DNA of 64,000 bases from Paraspadella gotoi (Eukaryota; Animalia; Chaetognatha), in contig CM119263.1 in the NCBI GenBank assembly GCA_051294375.1, positions 7,736,635 to 7,800,634 on the forward strand, read 5' to 3'. Shown piece by piece: positions 3,566 through 51,519 of the stretch. Made by a program: the position numbers and the translations under genes. Each line of letters begins with the position of its first letter. Positions within the stretch are counted from its first letter, which is position 1. The notes under the pieces were generated by a model. It was not told the DNA's origin, did not search any database, and saw only the letters and a list, made by a program, of their open reading frames with translations.

Positions 3566-4934
3566 TTAATCTGCATACATCGGGCCGCCACCGATGCGAG
3601 TGACCTTCTGCAAATTTTCAGCGAGGACTCTCATTGAGGCCAAACGAGCCTTCTCGGCCGATGTGGGGCAATACTTGATAGTGTGGGCGTTGTCCCCACG
3701 AGCTCCGCATTTAGGGCAAGTGTAGTTACGAAGTACGGGACAACGAACTCGTCCGTCGGTGTCTTTCAAAGCATGCGACCTTGAAAGATTTAGATGAAAC
3801 AAGATACTTAATGACCTGAGGAACGTAACCCGATAACATTCCAACCCCTCCCCACCACCAACAAAGTACCTGTACATGTTTTCGCACTCTCCGTTGTTTT
3901 TGCAAAAGTTGCAGAGCGCCCCCCCGCGAGTTTTTTCCTCGACAGGATGCCCCACGCCACACCCGGTGGAGTCGGGAAAGTAGGGCGGCTTCCCGCGGGC
4001 GGAGAGAGGTGACGACAAAGCCATGGCGTAAGGGGCGGATCCCTCGACGGCGGAGCAAAGGGAGAACTTGCCCGACGACTGCGGAGCCCCGCGCCCATGG
4101 AGTGGGTGGACCGTTTCCAGGTGATGAATGGGCGAAGGGCTCGCGCCCATGTTCTGCGGGGGCGCCGGAATGACAGAGTTAGAGAGGCGCGTCTGACGGT
4201 GTGGAAGAATATAAAATGATCATTAATTTCATTATGAAGGTTATTTCCTGAGTCAGTGAAATAAATCTAACTCAGTTATTTCCTGAGTCAGTGAAATAAA
4301 TCTAACTCACCATTTGATTGGCATTGGCTACGTCGAATTCGTCGATCTTCGGGACGAGCCAATTGATGAAGTTGTCCAAGACCGAGGCGTCGCGATGATT
4401 GTTGTCTCGTTGAAGGATTGATCTTTGCAGGCGAAGATTCTCCAGGAGTTGGACGTATCCGAGGCGGGAGTCCCATGTACGCGCCGTCCACTCATTTCGC
4501 CTCAAATAAATGATTCAATGATCATCTTTTTAATTATCTAATGAAATTAAATTCCTTTTAAACGTTATTCAATAATTAAAGTTAACTAATTAAATCTTAA
4601 TTTTAAATAAAAACGCAAAATAGCTGAGTTACATAATCCTACGGTATATTTGGCTAGCTCAAGTTGAAACTCACCTGTCGCTTAGAGGGAAAAGTCTTTC
4701 CAACTCTGTATTGAGCCAAGAATTGACGATTGTTTGGCCGTTAAAATCTCCGGTGAAACCATCGCCGTACAATCTATTGACGGGCGAGTCAAGTTGCGTT
4801 TTGATCGAATTAACCGTCTGATCGGGCAGCATTAGGTTGTATCCTCCATCTGAAACTGGTGTTAGTGAGTGAACCGACACCAGTTGAAGAGATTGATCGG
4901 GCAACTGATGAAATGGGTTATCGGGTATCTGCAT
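3566..4934 (-). CDS. nanos: Nanos CCHC zinc-finger protein; exons 4934-4675, 4500-4311, 4192-3870, 3779-3566
   Basis: Removing the 90-nt intron 3780-3869 gives [53 protein letters not shown], the tandem nanos zinc finger. Upstream exons join in phase via GTGAG donors. Confidence 0.93.
4240..4309. repeat. 35-bp perfect tandem duplication in a nanos intron
   Basis: GTTATTTCCTGAGTCAGTGAAATAAATCTAACTCA occurs at 4240-4274 and 4275-4309. Confidence 0.9.
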
Positions 4935-19200: not shown

Positions 19201-20490
19201 CGGCGTTGCGACCTTCGAGCACAACCCCGACGCCGACGACGGGGTCGATTGTGGCGCCAAACACACCCTCGGCGACGGAGTCTACGACCGAAACCAAGAA
19301 ACCTCCAATATGGAAGCCAGTCACTGAGACTCCCACTTTCAGAGAAGGTATTGGGGAGGCGATGAACGTTTCCACCAAAGAGAGAACTCTTTTTTGGCAC
19401 TAATAAAATCTTTATCATTTCTCTATGTATATAGTTATATTTGTAGTCGGGCATAGCATAAGTTCACCCTAAATATTTTATTTTATTATCATTTTCAATT
19501 GAATAACCGACTGCTTACTATGTAAAATTGAATTTTTATGAAGCATATTGAAATCTCGGAATCTTTCACCAAAAATTATGCGTGGTGATTGCATGCAATT
19601 CACGAAAGATGAAAGAAGTTGAAATAATACTTTAATATGAACCAAAAACACAGATCTTGGGATAAAGGTTTTTGCCTCCTTTGATCAGGCGATATATGCA
19701 CTCAGTTTCAACAAATCCAAGGAATCTTGGTTGGTAAAAAAATCTCAGATGTTGAAAATCCACCAGCATGTGGAAAGGTTCACCCAGGATCACCAGAGAC
19801 TCTTAACTGCAACTGTTGAAGGAGCAGGACAGACTAGAGGCTGAGTGATGTACCTTTTTCAACAGAAAGGTGGTTGTGGCAGGATGGTACACCTAGATGT
19901 TGAACAACAAATAGAATTAACTTTCTCAACAAAAACAAATACTGCGTAACTTAACTTTTCCCTTGCTCTCATTTTTTGTACTGGGGTAACATTAATGAGA
20001 TGTGTAGACAAAACCGCTCATCGTTAACTGCGCTGAATCAGATTGTAGAAGCAAATATGAAGAAGATTACTGCGACTTTTTTGTCAATCCTAATGAATTC
20101 CAGGCATTATATTTTTACCTCTCACAAAAGGAGGACATTAAGAGCATACACTAAGTCAGTTTTGCATAAATCTGGTACTTTTTAAATCTTTTCTATCAAA
20201 TGACATGTAATAAATTATCTTTATTAAGTAGTTTGTGTAATAAATTTCTACTTTGTGCCATTCGTTCTGGCTCGCGGGGTATCGTTCTATCCTAAAATTT
20301 TTTTCAAAGTTAAATTAATTTAAAAAGTAAATGTAGCTTGGTGACCGAGTCGTGATGAGAGATTATAATGGATATAATAGATAGGAAAAGTCAACATTAC
20401 TAACGCACCACCAAATTTTGAAAGTAATTTGTCTTCTCATCCCGATAGAAACTGAACTATGACAAAAATGCCCCCGCAAAGTTGCGCCCC

Positions 20491-27646: not shown

Positions 27647-29021
27647 TCAGTAGCGATAGTGGTCGGGCTTGAAGGGTCCGTCGATTGGAAGGTCCAGATA
27701 TGCGCTTTGATCATAGCTGAGCTTCATCAGCTTCACCCCAAGATGAGCGAGATGCGCTGCCGCTACCTCCTCGTCGAGCTTCTTGGGCAGCCTGTAAACG
27801 CCGACGGAGTAGTTCTCCTTTTTCGTCCACAGTTCAAGCTATAAAAATAATTGAGTAAAATTAACAGAAACGAATCGGCCTAATCTTTACATGATAATGA
27901 TAGATTACCTGAGCCAGTACTTGGTTCGTGAAGGAATTACTCATGACGAAACAAGAATGACCCGAGGCGCATCCGAGGTTAACTAGTCGACCCTCCGCCA
28001 GAACGATCACGTGGCGCCCGTTGCGCATGGTGTACCGATCCACTTGCGGTTTAATCGAATCTTTAATAGCGTTCTCATTCAACCAAGCGACGTCGATCTC
28101 GCAATCGAAGTGACCGATGTTGCAAACGATCGAGTCCTCGAGCATCGACTCCATATGACGCCCCTCGATAACGCCGCGGCAACCCGTGGTTGTGACAAAG
28201 ATCCTCGCTTCCTTGACGGCCTCCTCCATGGTCGTCACCTCGAAACCCTCCATCGCCGCCTGCAACGCGATGATGGGGTCGACCTCCGTGATCAATACTC
28301 GCGCGCCGAAGCCGCGAAGCGCTTGAGCGCACCCCTTGCCAACGTCGCCGTAGCCCGCGACGCAGGCCACCTTGCCGGCAATCATGACATCGGTGGCGCG
28401 CTTGAGGCCGTCGATGAAAGACTCCCGGCAGCCGTAAAGGTTGTCGAACTTGCTCTTCGTCACAGAATCGTTTACGTTGATAGAGGGGATCATGAGGTCG
28501 CCCGCATTATACATTCTATAGAGATTATGCACTCCGGTGGTGGTTTGTTCCGAGGCGCCTGCAATACCCGGCAGAAGGAGAGGATACTTGGAGTGAATGA
28601 ACTTGATCAAATCACCGCCGTCGTCGAGGATCATGTTGAGAGGCTGACCGTCGGGGAAGAAGATAGTTTGCTCTATGCACCAGAGGTACTCCTCGTCGGT
28701 CTCTCCCTTCCAGGCAAAGACGGGCACGCCGGCCTGAGCGAGGGCGGCCGCGGCGTGATCTTGCGTCGAGAAAATGTTGCTGCTGCACCACGTGACCTCG
28801 GCGCCGAGTTTGATGAGGGTCTCGACGAGGAGCGCCGTTTGCACAGTCATGTGAAGGCAACCGGCAATGCGAGCGCCCTTTAGTGGCTGCGAGGGCCCGT
28901 ACTTTTTTCTCATCATCATGAGTCCGGGCATCTCGTTTTCGGCCATGTCGAGAACTTTACGACCCCAGACAGCCAGTTTCAGATCCGCCACTTTGTACGG
29001 TAGTCGGTCTCGGGAATTCAT
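27647..29021 (-). CDS. AHCY: Adenosylhomocysteinase (SAH hydrolase); exons 29021-27909, 27838-27647
   Basis: [68 protein letters not shown]; second exon ends [10 protein letters not shown]. Confidence 0.96.
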
Positions 29022-29550
29022 TTTCGCAAACAGAATCTACAGAAAATAGAAGAATCGTTTCTGAAGGTTTCGGTTCTTGCGCTTGGCTTTCGTCTGCTTT
29101 CGAATTACGGGATCGTAATGTCTCATTACTAATGAGTGTCAAATAATAAATTAAAACTTAAAAATAATTAGATTAATTATAAAAAATTACAGAGGATGGG
29201 CCTTGGTTGTGCCACAACATCTCCAAAGGCGATATTTAATTTTAAACACTTCCAACACTTCCATGTAAAAATGAAGAGGCAAAAGATAAAGAAAAGAAGT
29301 TAGTTTTATTAGTGCGGAAAAGAATGGGATATTGGGATAATCAATAAACCGGATGAGATTAATTTTTAATTATAGTTTAAAGTAATAAATTTTTAAAATT
29401 ATAATTAATAATATTAGAAAAAAGCGAAAATGTTTATTTTCTTAACGAATTTGTTTTTATTTTCATAATTTTCATAACAATTATTTCTGTCTCTTCAATA
29501 CATATGTATGTATGTATCGATTTAAACTAATTTTAAATCGAATTTTAAAT

Positions 29551-33969: not shown

Positions 33970-35782
33970 AATATTAGTACTTATAAAGTAAAATTTCTAT
34001 CTATTGACTATTGTGTGCAAATATTCCAACCACTATTTCAAATCGGAACTATAGTATATAGTTATAACTAGTATATAACTATACGTATGCCGGGCTGAAC
34101 CAGGTTTGTTTTGGTTCGCCTCTTTCTCATGTCCGTTAACTTTTACTTGGCTTTTGATCATGCAAGTTCGTTTAATAGACATCTCAGATGCGGCTGAGTC
34201 CCCTTAATTACGCAGAATTCTTTATGCTTTTCCCACGTCGTAGATTTTCTCTTCCGGGATAAAGCACTCGGGGCTCGCGGAGAATTAATATTGATAACGA
34301 ATGAAATTAATCTTATTAAATTTATTTATAATTATCAAAAATTAATGCGATTACTTTTAGCCGACACCACCTCTTGAAAAAAAAAGATATTTTCGATTCT
34401 CGATAACGGAGAGTTTTGCAGCACCTTAATTAGCTTTCCCCAAAAATTAAGACGTTATTGAGAAGTTTACGTATCCTCCCTCACAAAAAAAGACTAGAGA
34501 AAAAAAAAACAACTTTAATGCTTTGTAAGAGATATTAGAATACTACGCAAGTGCTAGGCCTCAATGAAATATATTCGTCGATTGTACAAAAAAATATGTT
34601 ATTCTATTCTCGACTTTGACCTAAAACGACAATTATTTATAATTACGGGTCACACGTGACGTGTTTTTTTCCCTTTGACTGAATTCGAATCTGCATCGTC
34701 GTCCTCGTCGTCGTCGTCGTCATCGTCGCCCAGTTTGGCTCGAAGGCGAAATCATCCTTCCGTCAATTCCTTCTTTTCCACAGGAAGCGGAACCGGTTCT
34801 TTGCGCCCGGAGGACCCGGCCGGACCTCGGATCACGGACCCCGCCGGTGACGTAGACCCCGCCTGGACGAAAAGAAGCTCCGCCTGATCGGTTAGAAAGT
34901 GTCGCCTGGATCGCCTTGCCGAATCGGAGACCCTACTTGGTTAGAGAAAGCTTCGCATGTTCGGATAGATTAGCTCGAATAGTTGGATAGAGATCTCTGC
35001 CTGGACAAACAGAAAGCCCATCCTGGCAGAAAAGTAGACCCAGCCCGACCGAATAACCGCTCCGCCTCGCCGGATGCGAGTTCGCCCGAATCCCGGTCAA
35101 GACGAAGGCGGCGCTGGACTCCCGGGGAGTTTTTTTTACAGCCGTTACGTTTTTACGTTCCGGCCGAAAACGTAATCGTCGTCGTCGGCGTCTTTCGCGC
35201 TTTGACGACGATTTCATCATCGTAATCGTCGTTAAACGTAATCGTTCGTTCCGACTGGAGAGTGGAGGTAAAGAGATGGCGCAACAAAGACGAAACCACA
35301 AACAAAAGAACTCATCACTGAATTTTACACATAAATTGACCAAATTGATCTTTTATGTGCGTAACGTTTAAAAGATATTCTGTGAACTCGCTTCTTGGGA
35401 GCGGTCTCCAACGATCATTGATGTTGCGGATCTATGGTCGAAAAAATAATAGAAGTTGGAAAGTTATTCTGTAAATAATAAATAAATTCATTGCTTTTAT
35501 CCATTTTGAGCACAAAAAAAAAACAATAAAAAAAAAAAAATCTATAGCACCTATTGAAAGTATTGTGGAGCATGCTTACATTCTCTCGGTTCCAAAAGTA
35601 TCGTAACCGAGAAATAGAATAAAAATTTTCGTTGCATAACGAATAACAAATATCGTTTTGTTTGTTGTCGTCGCTTTTGTTCGTAATCGTTGGAAAAACA
35701 TTCGGACGCAACGATTGTCATGAGAATCAGTCTTGGTACTGCCCCTTGGTCTGGGCAGAGAGAGAGAAAGAGGAGAACAGAG

Positions 35783-35832
<50 letters not shown>

Positions 35833-35914
35833 CGAAAAAGACCAAAAAAAAGGCGCGGATTAAGAAATACTAGAATTCCCACGATCTCCCTATGATTACA
35901 TGTCCAGCGAATCT

Positions 35915-35984
<70 letters not shown>

Positions 35985-37341
35985 TCCATCATTTTTCAGG
36001 TACCAAAGCCGGCGATCTGCTGGGAAACGAGTGGGACCGGCATGAGGGGGGGGGGAGAGATCAGAGGGTTCGGGGGAAACCGTCCGTCATTTCATCGTTT
36101 TATCAATTTTGTCTAAGACTCCCACGCAATCTAGTGGCCTCCAATGGCCATTGATTGTTTAATTGCCTTTAGTTTAAATAAGAGGGAAAAAAAAGAAAAA
36201 TAACTGAAAATATATTAATACTTGAAGCCCAATAAAGACTTGTTGTACGTACAATGTAATTTATCTGACACGATCGCGATTCCAAAACCAACTTTTTTTC
36301 CTTATTTTCCTTTTTTTCCTTATCTTTTTTTTCTTTATATCGAGACAAGAAAAACTGGTTAATGAATCTTCGGTTTCCTGGTCTCCACCGTTGCTGACGC
36401 CGCTCCTCTTTTCTTTGATCAAAATCATCTGAAACCAGCTCTCTCTCTTTTTCCTNNNNNNNNNNNNNNNNNNNNNNNNNCTTTGGGTCGCACTTGCCGA
36501 ATCGGAGACCCTACTTGGTTAGAGAAAGCTTCGCATGTTCGGATAGATTAGCTCGAATAGTTGGATAGAGATCTCTGCCTGGAACAAACAGAAAGCCCAT
36601 CCTGGCAGAAAAGTAGACCCAGCGCCGACCGAATAACCGCTCCGCCTCGCCGGATGCGAGTTCGCCCGAATCCCGGTCAAGACGAAGGCGGCGGCTGGAC
36701 TCCCGGGGAGTTTTTTTTACAGCCGTTACGTTTTTACGTTCCGGCCGAAAACGTAATCGTCGTCGTCGGCGTCTTTCGCGCTTTGACGACGATTTCATCA
36801 TCGTAATCGTCGTTAAAACGTAATCGTTCGTTCCGACTGGAGAGTGGAGGTAAAGAGATGTGCGCAACAAAGACGAAAACCACAAACAAAGAACTCATTC
36901 ACTGAATTTTATACATAAATTGACCAAATTGATCTTTTATTGTGCGTAACGTTTAAAAGATATTCTGTGAACTCGCTTCTTGGGAGCGGTCTCCAACGAT
37001 CATTGATGTTGCGGATCTATGGTCGAAAAAATAATAGAAGTTGGGAAAGTTATTCTGTAAATAATAAATAAATCATTTGCTTTTATCCATTTTGAGCACA
37101 AAAAAAAAACAATAAAAAAAAAAAATCTATAGCACCTATTGAAAGTATTGTGGAGCATGCTTACATTCTCTCGGTTCCAAAAGTATCGTAACCGAGAAAT
37201 AGAATAAAAATTTTCGTTGCATAACGAATAACAAATATCGTTTTGTTTGTTGTCGTCGCTTTTGTTCGTAATCGTTGAAAAACATTCGGACGCAACGATT
37301 GTCATTGAGAATCAGTCTTGGTACTGCCCCTTGGTCTGGGC

Positions 37342-37414
<73 letters not shown>

Positions 37415-37511
37415 CGAAAAAGACCAAAAAAAAGGCGCGGATTAAGAAATACTAGAATTCCCGACATCTCCCTATGATTACATGTCCAGCGAATCCTCTC
37501 TCTCTCTCTCT

Positions 37512-37572
<61 letters not shown>

Positions 37573-38051
37573 TCCATCATTTTTCAGGTACCAAAGCCGG
37601 CGATCTGCTGGGAACGAGTGGGACCGGCATGAGGGGGGGGGGAGAGATCAGGGAGGGTTCGGGGAAACCGTCCGTCATTTCATCGTTTTATCAATTTTGT
37701 CTAAGACTCCCACGCAATCTAGTGGCCTCAATGGCCATTGATTGTTTAATTGCCTTTAGTTTAAATAGAGGGAAAAAAAAGAAAAATAACTGAAAATATA
37801 TTAATACTTTGAAGCCCAATAAAGACTTGTTGTACGACAATGTAATTTATCTGACACCGATCGCGATTCCAAAAACCAACTTTTTTCCTTATTTTCCTTT
37901 TTTTCCTTATCTTTTTTTTCTTTATATCGAGACAGAAAAACTGGTTAATGAATCTTCGGTTTCCTGGTTCTCCACCGTTGCTAACGCCGCTCCTCTTTTC
38001 TTTGATCAAAATCATCTGAAACCAGCTCTCTCTCTTTTTCCTCTGATCAAG

Positions 38052-40519: not shown

Positions 40520-41148
40520 ATGTACATTAAGCGTAGTAAAATTTCCTCAGTTTAACTTTAATTAAAATTCTAAAAAGTGAGGAACGAACAACATTATACT
40601 TATAAACATTTATGTATAAAAAAAATTATAATAAATTTTACAATTTACGCAGATAGGCCATATTTATACTAGTACTAAACCAATAAATGTTAAAATTTCA
40701 AAACAGTTTTTTCTAAGATTTTTTTTGCAGATTTGGATTCATCATAAAAAGTTGATAAAAAGAAATATAACTCTTTTTGAAAAATTCCTTCATTAAGTGG
40801 GTCAAAAATTAGAAAAAGCTATATTTTTAAACTGAAAATTAACTTTTTATATATTAAATATAGTTTTTTTAATTTTTAACCCACTTAATGAAAGAATTTT
40901 TAAAAATGAATTATATTTTCTTTTATCAACTTTTGACGAGGAATTCAAATCTGCAATCAAAATTAAGAAAAGCCTATTTTGAAATTTTTCGATTTTATAA
41001 GGATAGTACTATATATAAATATAGCCTACTGCGAAAATAAAAAACATAAAATTATTTTTTTTTACAAATTAATGTTCACTGATTGTATGTTGTTCATAAT
41101 TGACTTTTAGAATTTTCGTATGTAACTTTCACTACGCCTTAATGTACA
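40520..41148. mobile_element. AT-rich foldback/MITE; the whole element is an imperfect palindrome
   Basis: ATGTACATTAAGCGTAGT...ACTACGCCTTAATGTACAT ends; inner arms TTCATTAAGTGGGT / ACCCACTTAATGAA and GCAGATTTG / CAAATCTGC; centre ~40845. Confidence 0.75.
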
Positions 41149-41372
41149 TGTATAAAAATACTGCATAAAGATAAAAAGGAAGGATAAAGAATGGAGGGAT
41201 AAAAGATTAGAAAGAAAGAAAAGAAGAAAGAAGAAAAAAGAAAGAAAGAAAGAAAGAAAGAATAAATAAAAAATAAATAAATAAATAAATAAATAAATAA
41301 ATTGTGGATAAGGCGCTAAGTGGGCTGAAGATGACTATCCGTAACTTCTATAACCCCTCTAGCAGACATGGA

Positions 41373-41451
41373 ACGGGTCCTGGGCTTGGAACCAGGCTTG
41401 AGGGTTGCCACGCCCCCAAAGGCGGCTTACGGCCGTCCTCACGCTTCCCAC
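41373..41451 (-). ncRNA. Twister-like (P5-type permuted) ribozyme candidate, 3' LTR
   Basis: GUGGG AA GCGU GA GGA CGGCCG UAA GCC GCC [P3] G CCUGG UUCC AA GC CCAGG A CCCGU: UAA, GCC, P4, AAGC loop and pseudoknot GGA/UCC. Confidence 0.6.
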
Positions 41452-41779
41452 AGGGTAGGTACCGGGTTGGGATTGAACCCGGTACCTAGTGGTCATGAGC
41501 TGATGGCTTTACTCAAATGAGCCACCGGGTCAGGACTGAAGGTGTCATGCTTATAGGCGGGGTGAACCTAGGCAATGCCGACTACATGCCCCCCAGATTG
41601 TAACCCACCCTGCACTGCTTCCAGTGGAGGGAGGGGAGCAATCTTCAGCACGTCCATGGGCCTGGAATCAGAAGGTTGGAATACGCTCGACAGGATGGGC
41701 TCACCAGTGTGGATAAGGCGCTAAGTGGGCTGAAGATGACTATCCGTAACTTCTATAACCCCCTCTAGGCAGACATGGA

Positions 41780-41856
41780 ACGGGTCCTGGGCTTGGAACC
41801 AGGCTTGAGGGTTGCCACGCCCCAAGGCGGCTTACGGCCGTCCTCACGCTTCCCAC
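41780..41856 (-). ncRNA. Twister-like ribozyme candidate, 5' LTR
   Basis: Same core as 41373-41451; predicted U/A site 41834/41833. Confidence 0.6.
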
Positions 41857-42000
41857 AGGGTAGGTACCGCGGTTGGGATTGAACCGCGTACCTAGTGGTC
41901 ATGAGCTGATGGCTTTACTCAATGAGCCACCGGGTCAGGACTGAAGGTGTCATGCTTATAGGCGGGGTGAACCTAGGCAATGCCGACTACAAAATAAATA

Positions 42001-44515: not shown

Positions 44516-44640
44516 CCACCTTTCGTCACTCACTCCCTTCATTTTCAAACGTCAGTCACAAATACATTTCCATTAATACCTTTCACTTTTCTCAAAACAA
44601 ATTCGTCGTTCAGATGCTACGCCGCTAAAAAAAAAAAAAG

Positions 44641-47600
44641 ATGAGGAAAGACTTTTTATCCATCGTTGCCTTCGTCGTCGTCTTCATCGTCTCTCCATCG
44701 AATACATTCTCCCTCTTCGAGAGTTCTTCCTCACACACATGGATCTTCGGCCCCTGGAACGAATGCTCTGTCTCTTGCGGCGGCGGCGTAAAAACTCGTA
44801 ACGTCTCTTGCACCGAAACCGGAAACTTTAAGATCGTCGCCAACCGGAACTGCCAGGGCTCGCCCAAGCCGCCCGTCGACGCCCCGTGCAACGAGCGACC
44901 CTGTCCGTCGGATTGGATCGCGAGGGAGTGGGGAGAGTGTCGAGCAAAATGCGGCGAGAAGGGACTGCGATCGAGGGAGGTCTTCTGCGGTCAATTGGTC
45001 GGAGGAGATTACTCGGTGAAGAGCGAAGAGGAGTGTTCCGCAGCAGACCGTCCGCCGAAGGAAGAAGATTGCCAAAGCCCCCGATGTCCAGAGTGGAAAG
45101 CGGGCACTTGGTCGAGATGCAACGTCGCTTGCGGCAGTGGATTCAGAACGAGAAAGGTCGAATGCCTTTCCGGAGGCGGGAATCGAACCTGCCCCAAAAA
45201 AGCGATGCCTATTCTTGTCGAACCCTGCGTCGAAATGCCATGCGAAGGCGTGGAGTGGGTCGTCTCTGACTGGAGTCCCTGTGACGGAACCTGCGAGGGG
45301 AAATCGGTGCAGACTCGAGTCGCTGTCTGCATGGGCAAGTCCGGCGCAGCCTTTAAAGACGAATATTGCGAAGAAGAGAAGAAGCCGGAGACCAAGCGAT
45401 CCTGCGTTTTGCCAGCAGACTCTTGCTCGCCCGTTTGGCACGAGTCCGAGTGGAGCCGATGCTCAGCCTTTTGCGGCAAAGGCGTCCAACTGCGCTCAGT
45501 CTTTTGCGTGATCCGAAGCGCGGAGTCTTTCGTCGTTGTTGACGAAGATAGATGTGCAAAGATCAAGAAGCCGGAGGAGAAGAGAGAATGCGTCGTCGAA
45601 GACTGCGGCGGAGTGTGGGTGTCTGCTCCGTGGAGTCCGTGCTCTGCCACTTGCAGCAAAGGAGCTAGAAAGAGAACGCTTTTTTGCATAAAGGGAAGCG
45701 TCAGTGTTGAGGAAAAGTTTTGCAACAGAGAGGACCGTCCCTCCCAGGCTGAGGAATGCAATGAACGACCATGCCAAGACAATAATGNNNNNNNNNNTCA
45801 AGAAGCCGGAGGAGAAGAGAGAATGCGTCGTCGAAGACTGCGGCGGAGTCTGGGTGTCTGCTCCGTGGAGTCCGTGCTCTGCCACTTGCAGCAAAGGAGC
45901 TAGAAAGAGAACGCTTTTTTGCATAAAGGGAAGCGTCAGTGTTGAGGAAAAGTTTTGCAACAGAGAGGACCGTCNNNNNNNNNNGATGAGAAAACTCCTT
46001 CAGGACCGAATGGCATTGGATGTCCCATAACATTTTCCTGCGAGGAAAGCTTATGGGGTTGTTGCCCCGACGGGGTTACGCCAGCTAATGGAGAAAATCA
46101 AGGCGGATGTGAGGAAATTCCCGATCTCTCATGTCGGTACAGTGTTTTTGGTTGCTGTTCCGATGGGGAAACCAAAGCCCTCGACTTTAACGGTCGAGGA
46201 TGTCCTGATCCAACTGAAGGATCAGGAGAAATTGATTACGAGGACGATTGTAGGTCAAGCATCTATGGATGCTGCCCTGATGGAATAACTTCTGCCTGGG
46301 GTTATGATTTTTTTGGCTGCAGCGACTTTAGTTCAGAAGTGTTCCCACCAAATCCGGAGGAAAACAGGTTTGATGAAAATTACATTGACCAGTCATGTTC
46401 ACATTCCTTATTCGGTTGTTGCCCAGACGAAAAAACTGCAGCCACAGGTCCGAATTTTGTTGGTTGTTTATTTACTGAGATAGATGAGGAAACTAATTTC
46501 CATCATGAAGAATTGATTACATGCGTGGAAACACAGTTTGGATGTTGTCCTGATGGAAGGACTGAAGCAAAGGGAAGTAATTACGAGGGATGTACAAGTG
46601 TAGAAAACTGTGAATATACTTTATATGGTTGTTGTTCTGACGGCATAACACCTGCCCTTGGCAAGAATTATTTTGGATGTGTTAATAACATCGGAGTTAA
46701 GAATACCTGCTTAGATTCTTTGTTTGGTTGTTGCCCCGATGGAGTTTTAGAAGCAGATGGTCCAAATTATGCCGGTTGCCCTATAATAACGAAACACACA
46801 ACAACAGTCCCAACTATAACAACAACAACAACCACTGATGATTTTATCACTAAAGTCTTTGAAAGTACTTCTGAGATTACTAGTTGCGCTGACAGTACAT
46901 ATGGGTGTTGCCCTGATGGCATTAACTTTGCCCAAGGATCTAAGTTTCAAAATTGTTCAGCTACTTCTGAAACCTGTTTTGAATCTCAATTTGGTTGTTG
47001 CCCAGATGGAGTAAGTCCTGCAAAAGGGTTTGAGCTAGAAGGATGCCCTTACAGCCTACAGTTCAGGGAAAATTATTGCTCACAACCACATGATACTGGA
47101 CCAGGAAGAAACTTTGAGGTCAAATGGTATTTCGACCTTTCCCTAGGCGGATGTAGAAGATTTTGGTACGGCGGAGTAGAAGGAAACTTAAATAAATTTG
47201 ACAGTGAAGAAGTTTGCAAACGTTCTTGCGTTGAACCAACTGGAATCGATATTTGCTATTTGCCAAAAGTTTCTGGACGCTGCGGAGCAAATTTGCTTAG
47301 GTATTACTACGATTCAAGCTCTTCTCAGTGTAAGCCATTTTCTTTTGGAGGCTGCCTTGGAAATCGCAATAATTTTGAAACTATTGAAGACTGCTCAAAA
47401 TTTTGTATGAAGTCACAATTTGATAAAATTTGCTCACAAAGATTAGACGTTGGCCCGTGCAAGGGAAAGTTTAAACGATGGTACTATGATGAAATTGAAA
47501 ATGAATGTTCTATGTTTGATTATGGCGGCTGTAAAGGCAATAAGAATAATTTTGTTAGCATTGAACTATGTCAGCAACAGTGCCTCATTGCAAACAGAAA

Positions 47601-50600
47601 TGACATTTGCAATTTGCCCTCGTTACATGGTCCTTGCAATTTGAAAAAGAAATTATGGTATTATGATACCAGAACAGCAGATTGCCAACAATTTGTCTAT
47701 GGAGGATGTGAAGGCAATCAAAATCGTTTTAAGTCAAAGGAAAGTTGTACAAAAGTTTGCGGTAAAACAAAGCCCTTAAGGCAACAAATTTGCCAGCTTG
47801 AGAAAGCTGCTGGAACTTGTTCATCTTCTTTTCAAAGGTGGTATTTTGATAGATCCGAATCTCTTTGTAAACCTTTTGTCTATAGTGGTTGTCAAGGTAA
47901 TCTTAATAGATTCAAAACAGAATCAGATTGCAGAAATAAATGTGGCGGTCCCACTCCAACAAATGCTTGTAGTTTGCTTCCAGAACGAGGGTCTTGTTCT
48001 AATTGGCAGCTGTATTATTATTACAACAGTACAAAGGATATGTGTATGCCTTTTTATTACGGGGGATGTGGAGGAAATCAAAACAGATTTTCTAGTTTAG
48101 AGGAATGCAAGAAACGATGTCCAGCGAAATCAGAAAATGTGTGTAAAATTCCAAGAGACCCTGGAAATTGCAATATGAAACTTAACCGATGGTATTTTGA
48201 TGATACTACAAACTCATGTGAAGAATTCATCTATACAGGATGTTCAGGAAATCAAAATAGATTCTCAACCCAGAGTGAATGCCAAGCGACATGTGCTTAT
48301 TTGCTAGAGAGACCAATGATTCAAATCAAGCCAACGCCAAGAGAATTGACAACAATAGCAACCATAACCACACAAATGCCAGAAGAATCAACTATGCATC
48401 CAATATTGACCCTAAATTCTGAGAAAAACATCAGCCAAAGTTCATTATGTAGCTTAGACCCCACAGGAATTAGATGCTCGGATTCAAATGAAAAACCAAA
48501 GCCCAGATGGTATTATAACTACAGAACTCAAACTTGCCGACAATTTTCTTTTCTTGGATGTGGAGCAAATTCCAACAATTTTATAACTAGAGAAGATTGT
48601 GAATTTGCCTGTTTAAATGTAATGTCCAAAGCTCAGCAAGTTATTCAGATCAGAGATAACGAGGTTCAAATCATTCCATTGATTGATACTATATCTCAGA
48701 CAGATGTTTGCAAACTCAGGCCGAGTTATGGAGAATGCAATGATAAAATTCGACGGTGGTATTATGAACCAATGGTCAAACAATGTTTGGAGTTCTTATT
48801 TTCTGGTTGTCAAGGAAACGGTAATAATTTTCTCAGTAAAATTGAATGTAAAGAAACGTGTATGGGGATAACGGATGATCCAAAGCCAGAGTTTGTAATC
48901 ACGACGGCCATTCCCGAGTTAGAGGATGTCTGCCGATTAAAAGAAGACACCGGGCCATGCACGCAGTACACGCAAAGGTATTACTACGACACACAGACCA
49001 AAGAATGTCTTGCATTCATTTTTGGAGGCTGCAGCGGAAACGGGAACAACTTTGTGTCGAGACAGGATTGCATGGACGCCTGCAAGAAAGCGGCGGATCC
49101 CTCAGAAAGCCAATGCGAGATACCTCAATCTCGAGGCCCCTGTCGCGCTTCGATCAAACAGTTTTATTACGACACGATGAGAAACTATTGTTTCGAGTTC
49201 ATCTACGGCGGCTGCGGCGGAAACAGCAACAGATTCGAAAATCTAGAAGATTGTTTGGCTAAATGCGCGCCATCGACTCTGCCGAAGAAAGGAGTCAACA
49301 AGGATTCGTCATTGCCCAAACCCTGTACTTACCACCCGGATCAAGGACCCTGTTACGGTAGACAAGAAAAATGGTACTTTGATTCAAACGCCATGCGCTG
49401 CAGAACTTTCGTGTATGGCGGTTGCCAGGGTAACAAAAACCGCTTTGGCAATCGGCAGGAATGCGAAGCGACCTGCAATATGCGTCAGACCAACTACCAA
49501 GTGTGCTCCCTACCGAAATTGACTGGCCCATGCAAAGGAGCTTACATCAAGTGGTATTGGGATGACGACGCGCGCATCTGTCGCAGGTTTTATTACGGGG
49601 GCTGCGAAGGCAATGAGAACAGATTTGAAACAGAAGACGATTGCCTGGTTAAGTGCGGTTCCAAAGAGTCGGAGCAATGCTTAAAGCAGCGTTGTGATAA
49701 AAATTGTTCCTACGGCTTGGAGAAAGATTCGCGCGGATGTCAAATGTGTTCTTGCCTTAATCCCTGCAAAGATCAAATATGCGCCGACAATGAGCGCTGT
49801 TTTGTTGAACCATGCAAAGCTGGGGAGGATTGTCGCTTTAAACCCCAATGTCGTGCAAATGAAAAACCGGGTTTCTGTCCCGCCCAACACTCTGAAAATC
49901 TTTCGTGCAGCATCTCTTGTAACCACGATTACTCTTGTCCAGCCGACACTAAGTGCTGCTTCGACGGATGCGGCAAAAGTTGCATGCAGCCAATCCGAGA
50001 TGCATCGCCAATCTCTCCACCCGAAGCAGATTGCCGCTTGTCTCTCTTCGGCTGCTGCCCCGACGGAATCAGCGCCGCTCAAGGTTACAACTTCAAGGAT
50101 TGCCCCCAGGAAAAAGCGACGATCGTCTCGGGAAGCGCCGAGGAGCTTGTTTTCATCAACGGTCGAGGCGGCAGAATTGATTGCGTCGCCCGAGGATTTC
50201 CGCGTCCGCAAGTTAACTGGTATTTTAACCGGTCGCCAATCACGGACGACGACGACGAATTCGAGCTTCGCGATAACGGGACGCTCGTCGTTCGGACGGC
50301 AAAGCCTTGGAATCGCGGGATCTACACTTGTCGGGCCTTCAACGGCGTCGGCCTTCCCGTGACCAACGACTTTCGTGTCGTCGTCGTCTCGCCGCCGGTC
50401 ATCCTCTCTCAGTCCCAACGCTTCGTCGCACGAGCCGGGGACGACGTCTCTCTCGAATGTCGACATTCGGGGGATCCCGAACCGGAATATTTCTGGATGA
50501 AGGTAAACAGCGAAACAGATCTCATGAGTTTCTTATTATAATAAGTCAGCTGAAAACTAGCATATTAGCATAACATTTTTAGGAAATATCTAGAATGTTT

Positions 50601-51519
50601 TTTTTTTCAAAACTTAAAAACGGATTGTAAATTTTAATTATTTTCATAATGGAGTTACAAGATATTTCGATTTTAGGCACTGTTACTCAATTTTTGAAAG
50701 GAAAATTATACATGTATTATCAGTGTGTGCTTGCGATGTCGTTAAGTAGATAAGAAAAATAATGATTGATGAATTAAAACTTTAATTTTCCACACAATTT
50801 TACAAGATTGAATTGCTTTTTTGATAGAAAAAATAAAAAAAACATTTTTTTTCCGACTCAAGGATCGAATTCCGCTGCCGCAAAACTCTGACGATCACGT
50901 GACATTCGTCAACCAATCGCTGCGCATCGCAAGAGTCCTCCCGCGGCACGCCGGCTTCTACGAGTGCGTCGTAAACAACGGTGTTGGCGACGCGATGGCG
51001 CTGCGTCACACCCTCCAAGTCGAGCGAAATCTGCAAGCGTCAATAGGGGATCACAAAGGCTCCTACCTCGAGGGCGACGACGTGACGCTCCTCTGCTCCG
51101 TTACTGGATCTACGGATCGACTGCAACTGACTTGGTTCCGAGACCGGGAGGCGCTGACGACCGATTCGGGCCGAGTTGTCCTCGCCGACGACGGCCGATC
51201 TCTCCGAGTCGCCAACGTGACGATGAAAGACGGTGGAACGTACGTCTGTCGAGTGGACGACGGACTGGGCGTGGCTCGCGCGGAGACGCTGGTCGTCGTC
51301 GAGGCAAGGGCGACGCCGCCGCCTCCACCGGCGCCACGAGCGCCCGAAGGTTGCCTCGACAATCGGCTCCTCGCGAATTGCAGACTCATCGTTGCCGCTA
51401 AAATGTGCAAGAACCGCTACTACAAAAAATTCTGCTGTCGATCCTGCTTTGATTCTGGACAAGTCGGCATGAAGGATTTGAGAAAGAGGTTCGGTCGAAA
51501 TGTTTATACTATTAAATAA
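44641..51519 (+). CDS. PAPLN: Papilin-like extracellular matrix protein: signal peptide, 6 TSP1, ~10 GCCPDG Cys-rich repeats, 13 Kunitz, antistasin-like, WAP, 3 Ig, PLAC; exons 44641-50502 (interrupted by two N gaps) and 50863-51519
   Basis: WxxxxWxxCSxxCG TSP1 repeats; CxxSxFGCCPDG repeats; Kunitz FxYGGCxGNxNRF; [14 protein letters not shown]; Ig WYFN...GIYTC; [36 protein letters not shown]; intron 50503-50862 GT-AG phase 0. Confidence 0.92.

Follow-up and report, generated by a model that had tools for sequence, protein, structure and literature searches.

Does an animal genome hold a retrotransposon with long terminal repeats (LTRs) that carries a self-cleaving ribozyme and is copied from a circular RNA? 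The question is raised by a 689 bp element at positions 41303–41991 of a 64,000 nt stretch of Paraspadella gotoi DNA (Chaetognatha; GenBank assembly GCA_051294375.1, contig CM119263.1, positions 7,736,635–7,800,634), which is referred to here as the window. The original prediction, made from the letters of the DNA alone, was that of an animal LTR retrozyme, i.e. a terminal-repeat retrotransposon in miniature (TRIM) whose LTRs combine a tRNA-type promoter of RNA polymerase III (Pol III) with a twister-like ribozyme. The TRIM, the tRNA-type boxes and the P5-order motif of this interpretation stand; what it overlooked is that a single motif folds poorly. The analysis favors a Pol III-driven animal LTR retrozyme that uses a probably paired twister, and this reading is given a probability of about 0.55.

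In the papers compared here, retrozymes are split into plant LTR forms with a type III hammerhead and animal non-LTR forms without a primer binding site (PBS) or polypurine tract (PPT) (PMC4918200, PMC7229834). A high-copy animal element with LTRs, PBS, PPT and a twister would break this split. If the reading is true, the twister gains a role in an LTR element, and this would suggest that in animals a circle produced by a ribozyme can serve machinery of the Gypsy type as a template.

The element and its copies

The region 41303–41991 is a real feature and, as originally observed, is a non-coding TRIM. The sense strand is the minus strand. The parts of the element are the following, with the basis of each in brackets.

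41708–41991, minus: upstream (5′) LTR, 284 bp, TG...CA (sequence comparison)
41303–41586, minus: downstream (3′) LTR, 284 bp, TG...CA (sequence comparison)
41587–41707, minus: internal region, 121 bp, non-coding (sequence)
41697–41706, minus: PBS-like motif with a TGG start, one-base spacer after the LTR (sequence, by-eye comparison)
41589–41594, minus: short PPT, G6, two bases ahead of the 3′ LTR (sequence)
41299–41302, plus: AAAT flank within an (AAAT)n array, second copy at 41992–41995 (sequence)

The two 284 bp LTRs with TG...CA ends are as predicted and are 97.2% identical to each other. The PPT, read as G6 at 41594–41589, and the lack of an open reading frame were also correctly foreseen, the longest stop-free stretch in the six frames being 61 aa. 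The TGG that opens the PBS-like motif comes one base after the LTR, and nine of the ten bases at 41697–41706 equal those of the tRNA-Trp site listed for the wasp Helenus-2 and for Gypsy-32_NVi (comparison by eye with Fig. S2, PMC10886601). AAAT is found on both sides of the element, however the proposed 4 bp length of the target site duplication (TSD) is unreadable because the surrounding sequence is an (AAAT)n array in which eight bases match equally well.

A global alignment shows that the two LTRs differ solely by insertions and deletions. Assembly gaps with adjoining duplications are present in the window, and the LTR differences may for this reason be sequencing errors. The insertion looks young in either case.

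Nine public runs of the same organism (organism A) contain 40%–60% of the sampled words. Contigs that match the element number 6,591 in run X2, 3,099 in X5 and 562 in X9, and a fourth run gave 12. In 124, 91 and 28 contigs of X2, X5 and X9, respectively, the match breaks off at the LTR start and gives way to AT-rich flanks that differ from one another (agreement 0.40–0.43). With thousands of contigs, many of them with unlike flanks at the LTR ends, the element is therefore a member of a dispersed and abundant family. The summed depth in X2 is about 1e5 over the LTR vs 10–50 per contig, and this value is not a copy number. A variant form is represented by a small number of contigs (12, 8 and 3) in three biofilm metagenome runs. 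Run X13, from organism B, gave 0 contigs of the element, which is no proof of absence. Within the window, a 28 bp decayed fragment similar to the LTR start (86%, E = 0.04) is found in AT-rich DNA at 19442–19469.

The twister-like motif of the LTRs

Each LTR displays on its minus strand a motif with the strand order of a type-P5 twister, beginning with P5, P2′, GA and T1′, as had been read from the sequence and is now recovered by Rfam, by a descriptor and by a covariance model. The U/A sites have the coordinates originally given, 405 nt apart, the cuts themselves being predicted.

41780–41856, minus: P5-order twister-like motif of the 5′ LTR, predicted cut U41834/A41833 (Rfam, descriptor, covariance model)
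41373–41451, minus: P5-order twister-like motif of the 3′ LTR, predicted cut U41429/A41428 (Rfam, descriptor, covariance model)
3′ LTR motif, minus: P5 at 41451–41447 with 41377–41373; P2′ at 41444–41441; GA at 41440–41439
3′ LTR motif, minus: T1 at 41438–41436 with 41390–41388; UAA at 41429–41427; P2 at 41426–41424; T2 at 41423–41422
3′ LTR motif, minus: P3 at 41421–41397; P4 at 41396–41392 with 41383–41379; L4 at 41391–41384
41430–41435, minus: palindromic loop-less P1, twin at 41840–41835, predicted 6 bp duplex between the two copies (sequence, folding)

The conserved type-P5 twister bases GA, UAA, GC and UNNNAAGC are all present in the proper strand order. Both pseudoknots are intact, T1 with three pairs (GGA with UCC) and T2 with two, and P4 has five pairs.

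A motif of this size could in principle be a chance look-alike in a GC-rich LTR. The Rfam search that had been suggested as a check returns Twister-P5 matches in both LTRs, however their scores of 17.4 and 16.7 bits are below the gathering score of 37.6, and the E-values of 1.2 and 1.8 are what chance would allow. None of the 12 matches to Rfam with E up to 10 belongs to a hammerhead family. A P5-order descriptor gives two matches in the 64 kb, both strands included, and both are within the LTRs. This descriptor was composed after the candidate had been seen and is loose enough to admit it, which also leaves room for chance. Against this, it matches only 2 of 100,000 LTR sequences randomized by dinucleotide shuffling, and 0 when the third T1 pair is required.

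A comparison independent of the candidate comes from P5-order motifs gathered from phage contigs (8 + 124 loci), of which 54 with paired P1, P2 and P4 were kept. Alignment A1 consists of 51 of the 54; L068, L080 and L146 (one poor parse and two near-duplicates) were left out. A covariance model was built from these 51 phage twisters, the candidate not being included. The two LTRs rank 1 and 2 of 15 window matches with this model, at 22.8 and 22.1 bits, with E about 1e-4 on a rough calibration. The next match has 8.8 bits, a 13-bit gap. The candidate also obeys the third T1 pair described below. The chance explanation is largely refuted by these results and is very improbable.

A pair between base 2 of L4 and the base that follows GAGG is present in all 54 phage motifs, even though the search patterns had left this position free. 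The candidate has a matching A and U there, and its T1 therefore has three pairs. This leaves P1 as CGG|CCG, a 6 nt palindrome without a loop rather than a closed hairpin. The original prediction was right that P1 is minimal, but the loop-less palindrome and the three-pair T1 had not been recognized. P2 has three bases on its 5′ side, with two clean pairs and a third pair across a variable bulge at 41443. A three-base P2 occurs naturally in 7 of 54 phage motifs, and the four such motifs that were tested (4/4) exceed the Rfam cut-off. P5-type twisters with a three-pair P2 and a score above the Rfam cut-off are present in phage contigs L069, L075, L092 and L186.

The presence of a P5-order twister-derived motif in both LTRs is supported by these sequence comparisons. 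By score and by P1 the motif is a twister-like variant and not a member of the Rfam family.

Differences between copies of the element fit the predicted fold. At 41401, every contig of X10, X11 and X12 that spans the position has G-C in place of G.U, and at 41426, A-U replaces G.U in 6 contigs. Position 41450 in P5 gives C-G in 85%–97% of the depth in X2, X5 and X9; the copy in the window has U.G. All four bases are found among the copies at 41443, as would be the case for a bulge. Within 41379–41446, substitutions at a level of at least 1% are found at 1 of 34 core positions vs 10 of 34 others (p = 0.006), or vs 6 of 24 non-core positions when the G run is left out (p = 0.016), in a test that is rough in that the contigs are related, only those 80% alike are included and sites near stretch ends are missed.

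Proposed pairing, transcription and RNA circle

Can such a motif act? Taken by itself, the motif has a predicted fold that is no better than those of its shuffled versions (z = -0.11). The P1 palindrome forms no hairpin in the model, and is predicted to form a 6 bp duplex with a second copy (-10.7 kcal/mol). In a read-through RNA, swapping strands between the two LTRs to build a double twister gains about 13 kcal/mol over a pair of single twisters. The loop-less palindromic P1 and the poor folding of the single motif point to a paired, strand-swapped ribozyme, for which the palindrome offers a simple test case of a naturally paired twister. Paired hammerheads with a weak, short, palindromic stem III are described in amphibian retrozymes and Penelope-like elements (PMC7229834, PMC6765202). 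P1 has been reported as dispensable for twister cleavage (PMC6154101), and the monomer may for that reason also cut.

The tRNA-type boxes lie ahead of the motif in each LTR.

41918–41929 (about), minus: A-box-like motif of the 5′ LTR, TGGCT start, GA where tRNAs have GG (sequence)
41875–41885, minus: B box of the 5′ LTR (sequence)
41512–41524, minus: A-box-like motif of the 3′ LTR (sequence)
41469–41479, minus: B box of the 3′ LTR (sequence)
41456–41488, minus: 13 bp hairpin enclosing the B box (sequence, copy variation)
41268–41273, minus: first downstream T run (T6), in a microsatellite of the host; may stop Pol III, though only in this copy (sequence)

The coordinates bear out the A and B boxes that were claimed for the minus strand of each LTR. 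The B box reads GGTTC, and the distance from A to B box is 45 bases in each LTR, which is the usual spacing in tRNAs. The boxes also fit the description of Helenus boxes by Kojima, as given in the consulted part of PMC10886601. A functional tRNA in the LTR was considered and rejected, in that ARAGORN finds none. The hairpin around the B box is perfect, and both of its outer bases vary among copies in a manner that would preserve the pair. The summed depth peaks at 41456–41523 and 41898–41931, i.e. at the tRNA-like boxes, which hints that other repeat families of the organism share this part.

The minus strand of the element has no run of four T (T4), as had been stated. This is unremarkable, since 44% of shuffled monomers likewise have none, and the absence of T4 was dropped as an argument for read-through. 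The T5 run that had been reported at about 41270 is in fact T6, at 41273–41268.

The chain of events that is proposed, from Pol III transcription through double cleavage and a circle to reverse transcription in trans, is drawn by analogy with plant LTR retrozymes. Pol III would start near 41937 in the 5′ LTR, read through the 3′ LTR and meet no T4 run. The two LTR copies of the motif in one transcript would probably swap strands via the loop-less palindromic P1 to form a double twister, and would cut at U41834/A41833 and U41429/A41428, 405 nt apart; the fallback is a monomeric mini-twister. The need for pairing would favor the cutting of full-length transcripts over solo LTRs, and a finished circle with one motif copy would resist re-cutting. 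The product would be the following RNA.

41429–41833, minus: predicted 405 nt monomer between the two cut sites, with PBS, PPT and one permuted LTR (existence inferred)

Compared with shuffles, the predicted monomer has a higher degree of structure (z = -2.6), and a long predicted stem hides the 5′ half of the motif. The junction of a circle made from it would be identical in sequence to the LTR in the genome. The released 405 nt RNA, with PBS and PPT and no terminal repeat, would be ligated to a circle, probably by a host ligase of the RtcB type. Ligation would be needed before tRNA-primed reverse transcription can rebuild two LTRs, because the monomer has no terminal redundancy. Reverse transcription primed by tRNA would then run round the circle, with integration by a Gypsy-type partner in trans. 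The logic of a circular template without an R region is that of the model for plant LTR retrozymes (PMC4918200, Discussion), the consulted text of PMC7229834 has a precedent for RtcB ligation, and that of PMC10886601 ties animal Helenus to Gypsy through the PBS.

An active twister would not have to produce a circle. It may instead form the 3′ end of a linear template, with the upstream motif mostly uncut and the downstream motif cutting. Transcription from near 41937 and a cut 104 nt later in each LTR would leave about 104 nt repeated at both ends, which is enough for ordinary LTR strand transfer, and the Pol III RNA used by Cassandra is linear and has short repeats at its ends (PMC10886601, in the part consulted). 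The element is without T4, whereas in many bivalve and wasp Helenus LTRs the B box is closely followed by a run of T (by eye); poor folding of the single motif could also leave many sites uncut. However, the LTRs are copies of each other, so that no sequence feature spares the upstream site, and a strand-swapped pair presents both sites. In addition, plant elements of such layout accumulate as circles, according to the consulted part of PMC4918200. A linear template is rated rather unlikely, somewhat more so than the relic or passenger that is discussed below.

Several results weigh against a Pol III-driven LTR retrozyme with a paired twister, beginning with the Rfam scores below the cut-off that are given above. 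The A box reads TGA at YGG, i.e. it has GA for the GG of tRNAs. P1 is at least 14 nt in 61 of 62 phage parses made with no P1 filter, compared with 6 nt in the candidate, and the single phage parse with an 8 nt P1 is a second register inside a normal hairpin. P2 is weaker in the candidate than in phage, where it pairs fully in 58 of 62 parses and at three of four positions in the other 4. The twister fold of a single motif is 9.6–15 kcal/mol above the minimum-energy fold, vs 1.6–5.0 for 51 of 51 phage motifs, and the strand-swapped pair is still 9–11 kcal/mol per ribozyme above the minimum in a calculation without pseudoknot or Mg2+ terms. The support for pairs within this young family is mostly one-sided change, with hardly any two-sided change in the ribozyme. 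The core is also damaged in some copies: a single base is missing at 41382 in 5 X1 contigs, and 41439 is altered in one contig, which has a depth of 2. A last point concerns two Synergus wasp elements described in the next section, whose internal parts hold T4 runs (by eye), so that the picture of a ribozyme in place of a terminator is not clean there.

The sub-threshold Rfam score, the weak P2, the lack of a closable P1 and the large folding gap would also be expected of a relic or passenger, i.e. a twister that arrived in the LTR with a tRNA-headed short interspersed element (SINE) or a Penelope/Naiad-like tail. The element would then be an ordinary Helenus-type TRIM that moves via read-through RNA, with cutting absent or irrelevant. 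Insertion of a SINE into an LTR is the origin proposed by Kojima for such TRIMs (PMC10886601, in the part consulted), and a tRNA-headed repeat without LTRs but with a P1-type twister-like motif is present in loci L018, L033 and L052, so that donors may exist. Other observations are not those of a decayed motif. The core positions vary less than the loops among copies, all catalytic bases and both pseudoknots are intact, and an exact palindrome suits a paired ribozyme and would be an unlikely product of decay. Further, two wasp Helenus families carry, as read by eye, a ribozyme of another class in the corresponding position. Overall the relic appears doubtful, and the retrozyme with a probably paired twister is preferred.

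A broader and more tentative proposal extends the preferred reading. Animals would have true LTR retrozymes, in which Pol III-driven TRIMs repeatedly placed a ribozyme (a twister here, a hammerhead in Synergus) behind the B box and spread via RNA circles, and the ribozyme here would be an obligate strand-swapped pair that cuts only with both LTRs in one transcript. Although this is put forward as a possible scheme, less likely than the reading it extends, an obligate pair, if true, would be a built-in check for full-length RNA and would also shield the circle.

Relation to known elements and surrounding sequences

The element can provisionally be filed as a Helenus-type TRIM from its sequence. 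Like Helenus/TRIMp3 (Kojima 2024, PMC10886601, consulted in part, as is the case for the other papers compared here), it is a non-coding TRIM of less than 1 kb in an animal, with TG...CA LTRs, tRNA-type A and B boxes, a putative PBS and a PPT, and its 689 bp are within the Helenus size range of 311–1263 bp. Unlike in Helenus, the boxes fall within the first 40% of the LTR, with the twister-like motif behind them. The consulted text of the Kojima paper describes no ribozyme in Helenus, and its sole use of the word is within the title of a reference. The covered parts of the Helenus supplement sequences revealed no L4 of a twister within a suitable stem; they were gone through partly by motif search, where line breaks can hide motifs and one term covers 13 of 18 places. 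Helenus has a 4 bp TSD in animals, and Pol III transcription of Helenus itself is unproven (PMC10886601).

In the supplement (DataS1) of the same paper, Helenus-2_SyJa-LTR and Helenus-2_SyUm-LTR from Synergus wasps have, some 25 bases past the B box, a stretch that can be read by eye as an entire type III hammerhead. It has a GUC site, CUGAUGA, GAAA, three stems and a 12-base loop-loop complement. The hammerhead is not mentioned in the consulted text of the paper (PMC10886601). The two families are candidate insect LTR retrozymes and would be a second, named system that has apparently gone unnoticed so far. Similarities to the present element, judged by eye, are the LTR length, the position of the A box some 65 bases into the LTR, a putative self-cleaving motif shortly after the B box and a PBS-like site of the tRNA-Trp type. 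The Synergus elements differ in the type III hammerhead and in their internal parts, which measure about 490 bp and hold T4 runs.

Plant LTR retrozymes (Cervera et al. 2016, PMC4918200) are likewise non-coding, with a ribozyme motif in each LTR on the strand of the PBS and PPT. As in the present case, the monomer has no R region and the ribozyme is predicted to be blocked in it (PMC4918200, PMC9695139, PMC7761336). Traits of their own in these papers are the type III hammerhead, a tRNA-Met primer and circles of 600–1000 nt, and a Pol III promoter is unmentioned in the consulted portions. The element described here differs in its animal host, its twister-like motif, its A and B boxes and its predicted 405 nt.

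The type-P5 twister of Rfam (RF02684) shares with the motif the strand order, GA, UAA, both pseudoknots, L4 and P4; the score below gathering, the loop-less palindromic P1, the bulged P2 and the long-hairpin P3 set the motif apart. Animal non-LTR retrozymes and Schistosoma Sm-alpha SINEs are likewise small repeats of animals that carry a ribozyme. In Sm-alpha a hammerhead is linked to a Pol III promoter, and some hammerheads act only as pairs. They differ in having no LTRs, PBS or PPT, and display type I hammerheads, tandem arrays and Penelope-like links (PMC7229834, PMC6765202, bioRxiv 10.64898/2026.07.22.740005).

Neither viral nor metagenome contigs yielded a single locus in searches with the family patterns. 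A pattern of B box plus L4 gave 2 viral and 65 metagenome loci, none of them similar to the element at E < 0.1 and none with its layout, and a pattern with a loop-less P1 gave 5 prokaryote loci, none of which is a twister judged by P4 and P2. A full-text literature search, screened by titles and the starts of abstracts and with most subscription journals and Repbase notes outside its range, returned no twister in an LTR, no animal LTR retrozyme and no naturally paired twister. The element joins two known kinds, with a probably paired ribozyme as an added turn.

Three contigs of one metagenome (L018:580–860, L033:495–760 and L052:650–930) contain a repeat of about 270 bp that is 80%–83% alike among them. 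It has a tRNA-like head and a P1-type twister-like motif of 32–35 bits vs a cut-off of 67.2, is without an LTR and is SINE-like. It may represent a possible kind of donor.

Immediately to the left of the element, at 40564–41116, there is an AT-rich imperfect palindrome of 550 bp (77%) that resembles a miniature inverted-repeat transposable element. Near-identical duplications at 34907–38042 and 45563–45974 are next to N gaps and are probably assembly artefacts. An AHCY search gave hits at 82% and, for named animals, mostly at 77%–79%, and the Kunitz, PLAC and nanos domains agree with an animal host. The host genes in the window are intron-poor and encode a papilin-like protein with 13 Kunitz matches in one long frame (44629–51519, plus), AHCY (27861–29036, minus), nanos (3566–4219, minus) and RhoGAP (1245–1907, plus).
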